Origin: Escherichia coli
GTDB lineage: Bacteria > Pseudomonadota > Gammaproteobacteria > Enterobacterales > Enterobacteriaceae
Assembly (NCBI RefSeq): GCF_051903065.1
Contig: NZ_CP178438.1
Strand: one strand, 5' to 3'
Length of the DNA: 64,000 nt
Shown: one piece after another, positions 2,518 to 26,814 of the stretch
How positions within the stretch are numbered: the stretch's first letter is position 1
How the letters are laid out: each line of letters opens with the position of its first letter
Program-made: the position numbers and the translations under genes
The notes under the pieces: model-generated
The model's input: only the letters and a program-made list of their open reading frames with translations
Told to the model about the DNA's origin: nothing
Database searches by the model: none

Positions 2518-2533
2518 TGGCACGCAATCTGCA
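2518..2533 (+). promoter_or_regulatory. Sigma54 (-24/-12) promoter of norVW
   Basis: TGGCAC-GCAAT-CTGCA, 48 nt upstream of norV ATG; AT-rich tract between it and the NorR sites. Confidence 0.65.
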
Positions 2534-8502: not shown

Positions 8503-8651
8503 CAAATTCTCCAGCAATGACAGTTAATGCGCCGATACATTCACAAATCATGCCAGTTTTTAATTCACTGTTATTTAAGGAAATTAATTTCTGTAATGCA
8601 GGAAAAAAAGATGTCATCGACACTAGTGACGATGACATGTGATGACAATGT

Positions 8652-19639: not shown

Positions 19640-20247
19640 TTAACCTCTCCACTTTGAGCCTGCTGAAACAAGGTGAGATCGCCAAAGTCCGTGTTAAAGG
19701 TCAGCTCACGCTTACGTTTGCTGACGCGGGCGATATCGGTGTTATCCACCAGATGCAGGGCTTTAGTCGGGCACATCCGCACGCAGGCCGGACCTTGTTC
19801 ATCAAAGCTACAAAGGTCACATTTGACGGCGATCGCGCGAATACCTGGCACCCAGTCAAGCAATGTGCTGACACGCGCCGGAGCAGGCGGTGCCGGTGGC
19901 GCTTTCGGGGTATTGGCGTTTGCCGGAATATCCAGCGGACGGCTGCCGGAAAATTCAATTGCGCCAAACGGGCAGGCGATGCCGCACAGTTTGCAGCTTA
20001 CGCACAGGCTTTCATTCAACTGCACGGCCCCATCAACGCGGGTGATGGCGTTAACCGGGCAGACCACCGCGCAGGGTGCATCTTCACAGTGGTGACAGAG
20101 CTGCGGCGCAGATTCTTTTTCATTTAGCATCACTCTCAGGCGCGGCATTGATTGCAGGCCGTGCTGGCGATGCGTCTCTGAACAGGCGGCCTCACAAGTG
20201 TGGCAGCCGATACAGAGCGTGGAGTCAGCAATTACAAAACGATTCAC
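19636..20247 (-). CDS. hycB: Formate hydrogenlyase iron-sulfur subunit HycB
   Basis: 203 aa; four ferredoxin-type Cys clusters. Confidence 0.92.
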   Translation of the reverse strand: MNRFVIADSTLCIGCHTCEAACSETHRQHGLQSMPRLRVMLNEKESAPQLCHHCEDAPCAVVCPVNAITRVDGAVQLNESLCVSCKLCGIACPFGAIEFSGSRPLDIPANANTPKAPPAPPAPARVSTLLDWVPGIRAIAVKCDLCSFDEQGPACVRMCPTKALHLVDNTDIARVSKRKRELTFNTDFGDLTLFQQAQSGEVK

Positions 20248-20371
20248 CAGGCATTCCTCAGGTGATTGTCATTTTTGACGAAAACATGCCGATGAAATGT
20301 CATTTTCGACACTCATCGACACGCCCATCCCCAAACAGGCGTAACGCCTGCAAAACGGGCAAAGCCTCAGC

Positions 20372-20833
20372 TCATGCTGCCGGGCTTTGTCCCTTTACCA
20401 GTTGGCTTAAATTCACCGGCACATTGTTTTCAATAGCGGTGTATAAGCTGTCGTAAACGCCAGCGATTTTTTCGAGATAGTGTTCCAGAACCTGTTCGCG
20501 ATCGCGGATGTTGACCTTGCCATCAATCATGCCGTCAATGCTCAGTTGTGCCTGCGCAATCCGCTGTTTGTCTTCGCCATCTTTTGTTTCGACGTAATAC
20601 TCGATGGTGTGGCTGTTAAAGCCATCCGCCAGGGTGACGTAAATACGAAAATGTTCAAAAAGGACGAAACAGAGTTCTTTGTCCGGCGCGCAGCTCATGG
20701 CGTGATGCAGGCGAGCTTTCGATAACGTGATCCCCTGAACCAGCGAATTGCAGTAGATGTGCCACTGGTCCTGTAGGCGACGATGCCGCTGTGCGATGTA
20801 ATCGGCTTTCTCGCTTATTTCCCAAATAGTCAT
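20372..20833 (-). CDS. hycA: Formate hydrogenlyase regulatory protein HycA
   Basis: 153 aa; first gene of hyc operon, divergent from hypA. Confidence 0.9.
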   Translation of the reverse strand: MTIWEISEKADYIAQRHRRLQDQWHIYCNSLVQGITLSKARLHHAMSCAPDKELCFVLFEHFRIYVTLADGFNSHTIEYYVETKDGEDKQRIAQAQLSIDGMIDGKVNIRDREQVLEHYLEKIAGVYDSLYTAIENNVPVNLSQLVKGQSPAA

Positions 20834-20870
20834 TGTCAGGTTACCCGTTTAACAGAGATGCCAGCTTTAA

Positions 20871-20886
20871 GCATTTTTTGTGCCAA
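20871..20886 (-). promoter_or_regulatory. Candidate sigma54 promoter of the hyc operon
   Basis: Minus strand reads TTGGCAC-AAAAA-ATGC with GG-N10-GC spacing, about 35 nt upstream of hycA ATG. Confidence 0.5.
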
Positions 20887-20940
20887 CTTTTAATTTATTG
20901 TTATTAAAGCGATTTTTAAGATTTTGGTGAATTTCGTCGC

Positions 20941-20975
20941 CGTGTCGACGTGTCATTTCGACATCATCGACATTA
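20941..20975. promoter_or_regulatory. Cluster of TCGAC(A) motifs, candidate FhlA enhancer between hycA and hypA
   Basis: GTCGAC (20944-20949), TTCGACA (20957-20963), TCGACA (20967-20972) lying between the two divergent sigma54 promoters; assignment to FhlA is inference. Confidence 0.3.
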
Positions 20976-20998
20976 TTCACTGCAGGGATAATCAACAC

Positions 20999-21013
20999 TG
21001 GCACAATTATTGC
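20999..21013 (+). promoter_or_regulatory. Candidate sigma54 promoter of the hyp operon
   Basis: TGGCAC-AATTA-TTGC, 32 nt upstream of hypA ATG. Confidence 0.55.
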
Positions 21014-21044
21014 CTGTAGCTGGCAATAGTTAATGGGAGGCGAT

Positions 21045-21395
21045 ATGCACGAAATAACCCTCTGCCAACGGGCACTGGAATTGATCGAACAGCAGGCCGC
21101 AAAACACGGCGCAAAACGCGTAACTGGGGTCTGGCTCAAAATTGGCGCATTTTCTTGTGTCGAAACCAGCTCTCTTGCCTTTTGTTTTGATCTGGTTTGC
21201 CGCGGCAGCGTGGCGGAAGGTTGTAAACTGCACCTCGAAGAACAAGAGGCCGAATGCTGGTGTGAAACATGCCAACAGTATGTGACGCTACTGACCCAGC
21301 GCGTCCGCCGCTGTCCACAGTGTCATGGTGACATGCTACAGATTGTGGCAGACGACGGTTTACAGATTCGGCGGATAGAAATAGACCAGGAGTGA
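21045..21395 (+). CDS. hypA: Hydrogenase nickel incorporation protein HypA
   Basis: ORF 21033..21395; start at MHEITLCQRA with GGGAGG RBS; zinc motifs CWCETC and CPQC. Confidence 0.92.
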   Translation: MHEITLCQRALELIEQQAAKHGAKRVTGVWLKIGAFSCVETSSLAFCFDLVCRGSVAEGCKLHLEEQEAECWCETCQQYVTLLTQRVRRCPQCHGDMLQIVADDGLQIRRIEIDQE

Positions 21396-21398
21396 GCG

Positions 21399-22271
21399 AT
21401 GTGTACAACATGCGGTTGCGGTGAAGGCAACCTGTATATCGAGGGTGATGAACATAACCCTCATTCCGCGTTTCGTAGCGCGCCATTTGCCCCGGCGGCA
21501 CGCCCGAAGATGAAAATCACCGGCATTAAAGCGCCTGAATTTACCCCCAGCCAGACTGAAGAAGGCGACCTGCATTACGGTCATGGCGAAGCGGGCACTC
21601 ACGCACCGGGCATGAGCCAGCGCCGGATGCTGGAAGTCGAAATTGACGTGCTGGACAAAAACAACCGTCTGGCTGAACGCAACCGCGCGCGCTTTGCTGC
21701 CCGCAAGCAACTGGTGCTCAACCTGGTTTCCAGCCCTGGTTCCGGTAAAACCACCCTGCTGACGGAAACCTTAATGCGCCTGAAAGACAGCGTTCCGTGC
21801 GCGGTTATTGAAGGCGATCAGCAAACCGTGAACGATGCCGCACGCATTCGCGCTACCGGCACACCAGCGATTCAGGTGAATACCGGTAAAGGCTGCCATC
21901 TTGACGCACAGATGATTGCTGACGCCGCACCGCGCCTGCCACTGGACGATAACGGTATTCTGTTTATCGAAAACGTTGGCAACCTCGTATGCCCGGCCAG
22001 CTTCGATCTCGGTGAAAAACACAAAGTGGCGGTGCTTTCCGTTACCGAAGGTGAAGACAAACCGCTGAAATATCCGCATATGTTTGCCGCCGCCTCGCTG
22101 ATGCTGCTCAACAAAGTTGACCTGTTGCCGTATCTCAACTTTGACGTTGAGAAGTGCATCGCCTGCGCCCGCGAAGTCAATCCAGAAATTGAAATCATCC
22201 TTATTTCCGCCACCAGCGGCGAAGGGATGGACCAGTGGCTGAACTGGCTGGAGACACAGCGATGTGCATAG
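21399..22271 (+). CDS. hypB: Hydrogenase nickel-binding GTPase HypB
   Basis: 290 aa; N-terminal [10 protein letters not shown] metal-binding motif and GSPGSGKT P-loop. Confidence 0.93.
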
Positions 22272-24735: not shown

Positions 24736-26814
24736 ATGTCATATACACCGATGAGTGATCTCGGACAGCAAGGGTTGTTCGACATCACTCGGACACTATT
24801 GCAGCAGCCCGATCTGGCCTCGCTGTGTGAGGCTCTTTCGCAACTGGTAAAGCGTTCTGCGCTCGCCGACAACGCGGCTATTGTGTTGTGGCAAGCGCAG
24901 ACTCAACGTGCGTCTTATTACGCATCGCGTGAAAAAGACACCCCCATTAAATATGAAGACGAAACTGTTCTGGCACACGGTCCGGTACGCAGCATTTTGT
25001 CGCGCCCTGATACGCTGCATTGCAGTTACGAAGAATTTTGTGAAACCTGGCCGCAGCTGGCCGCAGGTGGGCTATACCCAAAATTTGGTCACTATTGCCT
25101 GATGCCACTGGCGGCGGAAGGGCATATTTTTGGTGGCTGTGAATTTATTCGTTATGACGATCGCCCCTGGAGCGAAAAAGAGTTCAATCGTCTGCAAACA
25201 TTTACGCAGATCGTTTCTGTCGTCACCGAACAAATCCAGAGTCGCGTCGTTAACAATGTCGACTATGAGTTGTTATGCCGGGAACGAGATAACTTCCGCA
25301 TCCTGGTCGCCATCACCAACGCGGTGCTTTCCCGCCTGGATATGGACGAACTGGTCAGCGAAGTCGCCAAAGAAATCCATTACTATTTCGATATTGACGA
25401 TATCAGTATCGTCTTACGCAGCCACCGTAAAAACAAACTCAACATCTACTCCACTCACTATCTTGATAAACAGCATCCCGCCCACGAACAGAGCGAAGTC
25501 GATGAAGCCGGAACCCTCACCGAACGCGTGTTCAAAAGTAAAGAGATGCTGCTGATTAATCTCCACGAGCGGGATGATTTAGCCCCCTATGAACGCATGT
25601 TGTTCGACACCTGGGGCAACCAGATTCAAACCTTGTGCCTGTTACCGCTGATGTCTGGCGACACCATGCTGGGCGTGCTGAAACTGGCGCAATGTGAAGA
25701 GAAAGTGTTTACCACTACCAATCTGAATTTACTGCGCCAGATTGCCGAACGTGTGGCAATCGCTGTCGATAACGCCCTCGCCTATCAGGAAATCCATCGT
25801 CTGAAAGAACGGCTGGTTGATGAAAACCTCGCCCTGACCGAGCAGCTCAACAATGTTGATAGTGAATTTGGCGAGATTATTGGCCGCAGCGAAGCCATGT
25901 ACAGCGTGCTTAAACAAGTTGAAATGGTGGCGCAAAGTGACAGTACCGTGCTGATCCTCGGTGAAACTGGCACGGGTAAAGAGCTGATTGCCCGTGCTAT
26001 CCATAATCTCAGTGGGCGTAATAATCGCCGCATGGTCAAAATGAACTGCGCGGCGATGCCTGCCGGATTGCTGGAGAGCGATCTGTTTGGTCATGAGCGT
26101 GGGGCTTTTACTGGTGCCAGCGCCCAGCGCATTGGTCGTTTTGAACTGGCGGATAAAAGCTCCCTGTTCCTCGACGAAGTGGGCGATATGCCACTGGAGT
26201 TACAGCCGAAGTTGCTGCGTGTATTGCAGGAACAGGAGTTTGAACGCCTCGGCAGCAACAAAATCATTCAGACGGACGTGCGTCTAATCGCCGCGACTAA
26301 CCGCGATCTGAAAAAAATGGTCGCCGACCGTGAGTTCCGTAGCGATCTCTATTACCGCCTGAACGTATTCCCGATTCACCTTCCGCCACTACGCGAGCGT
26401 CCGGAAGATATTCCGCTGCTGGCGAAAGCCTTTACCTTCAAAATTGCCCGTCGTCTGGGGCGCAATATCGACAGCATTCCTGCCGAGACGTTGCGCACCT
26501 TGAGTAATATGGAGTGGCCGGGTAACGTACGCGAACTGGAAAACGTCATTGAGCGCGCGGTATTGCTAACACGCGGCAACGTGCTGCAGCTGTCATTGCC
26601 AGATATTGCTTTACCGGAGCCTGAAACGCCGCCTGCCGCAACGGTTGTCGCCCAGGAGGGCGAAGATGAATATCAGTTGATTGTTCGCGTGCTGAAAGAA
26701 ACTAACGGCGTGGTTGCCGGGCCTAAAGGCGCTGCGCAACGTCTGGGGCTGAAACGCACGACCCTGCTGTCACGGATGAAGCGACTGGGAATTGATAAAT
26801 CGGCATTGATTTAA
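24736..26814 (+). CDS. fhlA: Sigma54-dependent formate hydrogenlyase transcriptional activator FhlA
   Basis: ORF 24700..26814; start at MSYTPMSDLGQQ (692 aa); two GAF-like domains, AAA+ ([14 protein letters not shown]), C-terminal HTH. Confidence 0.93.
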   Translation: MSYTPMSDLGQQGLFDITRTLLQQPDLASLCEALSQLVKRSALADNAAIVLWQAQTQRASYYASREKDTPIKYEDETVLAHGPVRSILSRPDTLHCSYEEFCETWPQLAAGGLYPKFGHYCLMPLAAEGHIFGGCEFIRYDDRPWSEKEFNRLQTFTQIVSVVTEQIQSRVVNNVDYELLCRERDNFRILVAITNAVLSRLDMDELVSEVAKEIHYYFDIDDISIVLRSHRKNKLNIYSTHYLDKQHPAHEQSEVDEAGTLTERVFKSKEMLLINLHERDDLAPYERMLFDTWGNQIQTLCLLPLMSGDTMLGVLKLAQCEEKVFTTTNLNLLRQIAERVAIAVDNALAYQEIHRLKERLVDENLALTEQLNNVDSEFGEIIGRSEAMYSVLKQVEMVAQSDSTVLILGETGTGKELIARAIHNLSGRNNRRMVKMNCAAMPAGLLESDLFGHERGAFTGASAQRIGRFELADKSSLFLDEVGDMPLELQPKLLRVLQEQEFERLGSNKIIQTDVRLIAATNRDLKKMVADREFRSDLYYRLNVFPIHLPPLRERPEDIPLLAKAFTFKIARRLGRNIDSIPAETLRTLSNMEWPGNVRELENVIERAVLLTRGNVLQLSLPDIALPEPETPPAATVVAQEGEDEYQLIVRVLKETNGVVAGPKGAAQRLGLKRTTLLSRMKRLGIDKSALI

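Follow-up and report, generated by a model that had tools for sequence, protein, structure and literature searches.

Two operons which leave the same short intergenic region in opposite directions raise the question of how each of their promoters is activated, and from which enhancer. We have followed this question for hyc and hyp in a window of 64,000 nucleotides of Escherichia coli DNA (the whole stretch that was analysed, called "the window" below). The region can be regarded, with high confidence, as a control region of the formate regulon, in which two divergent sigma-54 promoters have an FhlA enhancer between them and a second FhlA module is located in the gap between hycA and hycB. It is a known region, described between 1990 and 2000, and nothing in it is new in kind; the original description (Lutz et al. 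1990 Mol Microbiol 4:13) is on "divergent NtrA-dependent promoters". Compared with an earlier note made from the same DNA, an IHF-like site, the distal enhancer and a map of conservation and spacing have been added here.

The role of the region is to set the amounts of hydrogenase 3, of the maturation machinery and of FhlA when formate builds up in fermenting enteric bacteria, and it is a standard target for engineered biohydrogen strains. The main value of the analysis is correct annotation, and the accepted picture of hyc-hyp control is left unchanged.

The hycA-hypA locus and its divergent promoters

Several E. coli chromosomes carry the stretch 20300-21500 with 100% identity, and the region was found in 5,425 of the 5,426 complete E. 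coli genomes. In this stretch the RefSeq annotation has hycA on the minus strand and hypA and hypB on the plus strand, and the intergenic region of hycA and hypA is exactly 20834-21044, that is, 211 bp of E. coli chromosome. The gene neighbourhood is the canonical hydrogenase cluster of 58-59 min, with hydN-hypF, ascGFB, hycIHGFEDCBA and hypABCDE-fhlA, then mutS. The first gene of the hyc operon, hycA (20372-20833, minus strand), codes for the FhlA anti-activator and was recognized by its open reading frame, by the annotation and by the Pfam family HycA_repressor (E=1.3e-90). The first gene of hypABCDE-fhlA is hypA (21045-21395, plus strand; open reading frame and annotation), and this transcription unit ends with the activator gene fhlA (24736-26814, plus strand; annotation and open reading frame), the product of which contains GAF, Sigma54_activat and HTH_8 domains. 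The identities that the earlier note had given to hycA and hypA are thus confirmed by the RefSeq annotation and, in the case of hycA, by the protein family as well. An Rfam scan of 20000-21600 returned a sub-threshold microRNA match alone, which is noise, and the search for FNR-like sites in the intergenic region and in hypA gave nothing convincing.

Sigma-54 type elements had been proposed on both strands of this spacer, TTGGCACAAAAAATGC at 20871-20886 on the minus strand for hyc and TGGCACAATTATTGC at 20999-21013 on the plus strand for hyp, and both were found at these positions. The hyc promoter TTGGCACAAAAAATGCT (20870-20886, minus strand) has its GG at 20884/20883 and its GC at 20872/20871, while in the hyp promoter CTGGCACAATTATTGCC (20998-21014, plus strand) the GG stands at 21000/21001 and the GC at 21012/21013. 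In both cases, hyc with TGGCACAAAAAATGCT and hyp with TGGCACAATTATTGCC, the GG and the GC are exactly 10 bp apart, in a motif of the TGGCAC-N5-TTGCW type. The related pattern TGGCAC-N5-WTGC has exactly two matches in the 64 kb, 20871-20885 (minus) and 20999-21013 (plus), where 0.61 would be expected according to shuffled sequences; that both of them lie within one 211-bp spacer and each is directed toward its gene is far past chance, with an estimate of about 1e-6. Scored with the RpoN matrix, which was derived from 186 promoters and is reproduced in PMC7658346, the hyc promoter reached 15.35 bits and the hyp promoter 14.82 bits, ranking second and fourth among the approximately 128,000 positions of the window. 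Each motif points to its own gene, and the predicted starts precede the start codons of hycA and hypA by 26 and 20 nt. These starts, ~20859 for hyc and ~21025 for hyp, are the predictions of the ChIP-seq paper discussed below and lie 19 bp downstream of the motif centre.

Both promoters are listed in Table 1 of the sigma-54 ChIP-seq study of Bonocora et al. (PMC4591121), as OS27 (TTGGCACAAAAAATGCT, minus strand, hycA, FAT occupancy 91) and as OS28 (CTGGCACAATTATTGCT, plus strand, hypA, FAT occupancy 201), and both carry the flag 'C', which stands for experimentally confirmed in EcoCyc. The hyc promoter of the window is identical to the 17-mer of OS27, and the hyp promoter agrees with that of OS28 in 16 of 17 positions, the last base being different. 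Furthermore, genomic SELEX gave an RpoN-holoenzyme peak in the hycA/hypA spacer in vitro, the Salmonella orthologues of both promoters are sigma-54-bound and rpoN-dependent, and the FhlA-dependence of hypA is stated in the published literature. The in vivo sigma-54 occupancy and the rpoN dependence are taken from the literature and refer to K-12 and Salmonella, not to this strain.

The conservation of the region was followed in an alignment of 80 hycA loci from different Enterobacteriaceae species, which together with the window made 81 sequences; the genera sampled include Escherichia, Salmonella, Citrobacter, Enterobacter, Klebsiella, Raoultella, Kluyvera, Lelliottia and Kosakonia. The divergent arrangement of hycA and hypA is present in all 80 loci, with a spacer of 188-223 bp. 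The -24 TGGCA and the -12 TGC are invariant in both promoters across the 81 species, and so is T.TTGC of the hyp promoter; the neighbouring spacer bases drift while the promoters and the core of the upstream activating sequence (UAS) between them stay fixed. The earlier note's proposal of divergent sigma-54 promoters for hyc and hyp is therefore borne out by the pattern, by the RpoN matrix, by OS27 and OS28 and by the conservation.

The promoters are also the arms of a 27-nt inverted repeat (20859-20885 / 20999-21025, 78% complementary), which continues beyond the -12 elements as far as a CTGGCA at either predicted start; this extension is only moderately conserved outside Escherichia. As a functional unit joining the two promoters the repeat was rejected, since it is only partly conserved outside Escherichia. 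Elsewhere in the window, the top RpoN-matrix match is TGGCACGCAATCTGCA (2518-2533, plus strand, 16.32 bits), the published motif of the norV promoter, which is a NorR-dependent sigma-54 promoter. The sigma-54 promoter of hydN-hypF, TGGCATGATTTGTGAA (8540-8555, minus strand), is a formate-regulon promoter within the window and scores only 11.05 bits; before it, at ~8610-8651 on the minus strand, there is a TGTCAT/ATGACA-rich FhlA-type enhancer which overlaps the end of ascG.

The 5' untranslated leader of hyc (20834-20859, minus strand), 26 nt counted from the predicted start ~20859, is unusually well conserved. Across genera its plus-strand sequence TGTCAGGTTACCCGTTTAACAGAGA (20834-20858) varies far less than the hyp leader or the -12/+1 region, and the mRNA strand carries GTTA-N6-TAAC; translation signals or the site of another regulator are possible reasons for this conservation. 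The hyp leader (21025-21044, plus strand), 20 nt from the predicted start, has the ribosome-binding site GGGAGG, of which GGAG is invariant.

Compared with MG1655, 8 of the 211 intergenic bases differ in the window. No difference from K-12 falls in the hyc promoter, in the IHF-like core or in the UAS over 20929-20980. Six of the eight are crowded into 20910-20927, a non-conserved A+T-rich stretch of spacer which separates the IHF core from the UAS, and the other two are at 20981 and 21014. As an example from the A+T-rich tract, the window has GATTTTGG where K-12 has GCTAAAGA. Within E. coli the intergenic identity to the window extends from ~92% to 100%. Position 21014, directly after the GC of the hyp -12 element, is T in K-12 (TTGCT) and C in the window (TTGCC), while the other 80 species all have A or T there; the exact 50-mer around it is shared by only 11 of the 5,426 E. 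coli genomes. In the RpoN matrix no base is rarer than C at this position, and the hyp score falls with it from 19.07 to 14.82 bits (~4.2 bits lost). The same C improves a 10-nt inverted repeat (21005-21014 / 21022-31) across the -12 element and the predicted start.

Two FhlA modules and an IHF-like site

Between the two promoters a cluster of TCGAC(A) motifs had been described and connected with FhlA. The cluster is present: the plus strand carries TCGAC at 20945, 20958 and 20967, the minus strand at 20944, and nowhere else in the 64-kb window do four such motifs occur within 30 bp. Nevertheless, at least four TCGAC/GTCGA within 30 bp were also obtained in 31 of 300 first-order Markov simulations, because the palindrome GTCGAC is counted twice, and therefore the TCGAC cluster alone is weak evidence. 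Its significance rests on the FhlA-matrix score and on the conservation across species. The connection with FhlA holds, as TCGACA is the reverse complement of TGTCGA and TGTC/GACA is the core of the FhlA matrix, and it was right to leave the exact assignment of the FhlA site open.

The FhlA enhancer consensus CATTTCGTACGAAATG (Leonhartsberger et al. 2000, as quoted in PMC4987338), in its idealised 16-bp form, had no match with three or fewer mismatches anywhere in the window, and according to the counts the ATTTCG half-sites showed no overall enrichment in the window. Natural FhlA sites are degenerate, and the 14-bp FhlA matrix (PMC7658346), which reads approximately TGWC-N6-GWCA and was made from 13 characterised sites, was informative where the 16-bp consensus was not. 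Scanning of the window with this matrix gave 17.51 bits at 20298-20311 and 16.13 bits at 20959-20972 (the maximum being 17.69 bits), with the next match at 13.8; the 13 source sites probably include these very sequences, which makes the scores partly circular, and they still show which sequences the field takes as FhlA sites.

The second of these matches belongs to the proximal FhlA enhancer (UAS, 20927-20980). It is placed within an imperfect inverted repeat, GTGAATTTCGTCG / CGACATTATTCAC, with arms at 20927-20939 / 20968-20980, it contains short direct repeats, and its conserved core TGTCGACGTGTCATTTCGACATCATCGACAT extends over 20943-20973. The top intergenic site of the FhlA matrix, TGTCGATGATGTCG (20959-20972, minus strand), comes second in the window with 16.13 of 17.69 bits and is formed by the two TCGACA repeats of the earlier note, read on the opposite strand. 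In addition, the proximal UAS includes CATTTCG(A/T), a half-site of CATTTCGTACGAAATG. The centre of the UAS is at ~-95 to -100 for hyc and at ~-67 to -72 for hyp, which agrees with the 70-140 bp upstream expected of such an enhancer, and these distances are comparable to those of fdhF, hydN and hyfA. In all 81 sequences TGTC (20951-20954) and G.CA (20969-20972) are invariant, and the conserved core reads GAC(A/G)TGTCATTTCG(A/T)CA-N3-T(C/T)G(A/T)CAT. In most genera it has CATTTCGT, exactly half of the published FhlA consensus, and 54 of the 81 species retain an FhlA-matrix match at the corresponding alignment position. Physical binding of FhlA to the enhancer was reportedly observed by Schlensog et al. 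1994 and Leonhartsberger et al. 2000.

The best FhlA-matrix match of the window lies in a module that was missing from the earlier note. This distal FhlA enhancer, TGTCATTTTTGACGAAA ... TGTCATTTTCGACACTCATCGACAC (20267-20322), is situated in the hycA-hycB gap and contains the match at 20298-20311 (17.51 of 17.69 bits) and a further one at 20267-20280. Its GTCATTTTTGACG and TCGACACnnnTCGACAC are invariant across genera, so that conservation is stronger in the distal module than in the proximal one. The right half of the distal module could be aligned with the proximal core in 22 of 22 bases, with two single-base gaps, and this alignment score was matched by 0 of 2,950 random windows. Since the module abuts the start codon of hycB, it has no room to serve as a promoter element of hycB. 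Schlensog et al. 1994 reportedly saw FhlA bind at two places, in the hyc-hyp spacer and in the hycA-hycB gap, and assigned the second of them to hyp.

The earlier note also lacked the IHF-like site which we found between the hyc promoter and the UAS. The core TAACAATAAATTA (20891-20903, minus strand) matches WATCAANNNNTTR with 1 mismatch and is the only intergenic match to it at one mismatch or fewer, which makes it a candidate IHF site; in most other genera the exact YAANNNNTTGATW (plus strand) stands at the aligned position. By its sequence the site has what an IHF site at this place should have, a core between enhancer and promoter and an A+T-rich flank (20904-20925), variable among species. 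With the core at this place, an IHF bend would stand between the promoter and the enhancer at ~-95 on the hyc side, which is the classic layout. Between the proximal UAS and the hyp promoter the intergenic scan revealed no IHF-like site.

The spacings of these elements, measured between invariant columns of the alignment, fall into discrete classes: 45, 56-59 or 67-68 bp from the hyc -24 element to the UAS core, 47-49 or 58-60 bp from the UAS core to the hyp -24 element, and 94, 104-105 or 114-118 bp from promoter to promoter, while the half-modules of the distal UAS are 25-29 or 35-38 bp apart. In some lineages the spacer changes compensate each other and the promoter-to-promoter distance is held at 116-118 bp. 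The steps of ~10-11 bp, which appear on both sides of the UAS and in the distal UAS as well, would fit face-of-helix constraints, and the pattern suggests that the spacers may tolerate only whole-helical-turn changes. The classes reflect few independent indels, perhaps 3-4, and some of them are partly explained by UAS repeat units that were gained or lost on one or the other side.

Assignment of the enhancers to hyc and hyp

In the mechanism that we propose, sigma-54 RNA polymerase would be held in closed complexes on both divergent -24/-12 promoters, the leftward one driving hycABCDEFGHI from ~20859 and the rightward one hypABCDE-fhlA from ~21025. Formate-activated FhlA would bind to the TGTC/GACA-rich enhancer at 20927-20980, centred ~95-100 bp upstream of the hyc start, then a bend made by IHF at ~20890-20925 would bring FhlA to the hyc polymerase, and the ATPase of FhlA would open the hyc promoter. 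The nucleotide sequence points to 20891-20903 as the exact site that IHF may use. It is very probable that the proximal enhancer serves hyc. The distal copy (20267-20322), ~730 bp upstream of the hyp start, would most likely be the main hyp enhancer and act via looping, and the proximal site may add to the activation of hyp. By its gene order the circuit also has feedback: the hyc operon opens with hycA, the gene of the anti-activator, and fhlA closes the hyp unit.

The assignment of the distal enhancer to hyp, which we consider reasonably probable and hold with some reserve, draws partly on the one reported by Schlensog et al. 1994 and partly on parsimony: with two promoters and two modules, the proximal one being at the canonical distance from hyc, parsimony favours the distal one for hyp. 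A single bidirectional enhancer, shared by hyc and hyp and represented by the intergenic TCGAC cluster, as the earlier note implied, is possible, though we are doubtful about it; the distal module would then be auxiliary or would have another target. The UAS is indeed located between both promoters, the helical-turn indel steps on both of its sides are those expected from a face-of-helix constraint toward both promoters, and the divergent sigma-54 pair zraP/zraS has a similar layout (PMC4591121). However, the centre of the UAS is ~67-72 bp from the hyp start, which is short for looping when compared with the ~-95 to -135 found at hyc, fdhF, hydN and hyfA, the hyp side of the UAS is devoid of an IHF-like site, and the quantised spacings may go back to the few indels and repeat-unit changes mentioned above. 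A shared enhancer would also leave the second, invariant FhlA module in need of a function, and the reported assignment of hyp to the distal module likewise counts against it.

We consider it rather improbable that the proximal enhancer is bidirectional, in helical phase with both promoters, and that the distal one adds FhlA by looping, in which case the C at 21014 might shift the balance. If this were true, the locus would be a three-way enhancer-promoter hub, not two independent enhancer-promoter pairs.

It is very unlikely that the distal module does not serve hyp and acts toward hyc, as a downstream enhancer either of the hyc promoter or of a sigma-54 motif inside hycA, TGGCACATCTACTGCA (20749-20764, minus strand). 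Sigma-54 enhancers can work from either side of a promoter. The intragenic motif has the same sense as hyc and, as the third best RpoN match of the window with 15.06 bits, is level with true promoters; the hyc promoter peak is only ~120 bp away. Bonocora et al. (PMC4591121) describe many intragenic sigma-54 sites which are functional and sense-oriented, and if this one were a promoter, hycB-I could be expressed without full-length hycA. Nevertheless, the high-stringency ChIP-seq list (PMC4591121) lacks an entry for the motif, which arises from the conserved codons W-H-x-Y-C (W24-H-I-Y-C28 in hycA), scoring 5-10 bits in many species. For the Cys, 61 of 80 species use TGC, and the other 19 use TGT, which destroys the GC of the -12 element. 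Considering the codon pattern and the absence from the ChIP-seq list, we rejected TGGCACATCTACTGCA as a third promoter and judged it to be probably a by-product of coding.

The reading of the TCGAC cluster as a product of chance, or as a site for some other factor and not as an FhlA enhancer, which the frequency of such clusters in the simulations and the unmatched 16-bp consensus might suggest, is hardly credible when the second-best FhlA-matrix match of the 64 kb lies inside the cluster, its core is fixed in 81 species while the adjoining spacer drifts, its 22-base module recurs in the hycA-hycB gap with a score that the random windows did not reach, and TGTCG-type cores are also present upstream of fdhF, hydN and hyfA.

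The footprint of the 81 species offers a compact, base-resolved map of the constrained positions, which belong to the two promoters, to the IHF core and to both FhlA modules. Such a map could be of use in promoter engineering and in deciding which enhancer drives hyp.

Comparison with related sigma-54 systems

The hyc-hyp region of K-12 (Lutz 1990; Schlensog 1994; Hopper 1994; Leonhartsberger 2000) is the same locus, and the window differs from it by strain polymorphisms only. The promoters of fdhF, hydN-hypF and hyfA are built from similar elements, a sigma-54 promoter with a cluster of TGTC(G/A)/(C/T)GACA and TTTCG motifs ~75-115 bp upstream of the -24 element. However, each of these has a single promoter and one enhancer, whereas in hyc-hyp two promoters stand back to back and the two enhancer modules are ~650 bp apart, one of them lying beyond the whole hycA gene.

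The zraP/zraSR region, which is controlled by the activator ZraR, resembles hyc-hyp in its divergent sigma-54 promoters ~150 bp apart, OS38 and OS39 (PMC4591121). It differs in responding to another activator and to a zinc signal. Leonhartsberger et al. 2001 reportedly placed activator sites between the zraP and zraSR promoters, and we know of no second remote enhancer in that system.

In nifH, glnHp2, Pu and pspA a promoter, an IHF bend and an enhancer at ~-100 follow each other, and the hyc side shows these elements in the same order. Unlike in these IHF-assisted promoters, no IHF-like site separates the proximal UAS from the promoter on the hyp side, and the sole IHF-like site of hyc-hyp would fall between the distal UAS and the hyp promoter.
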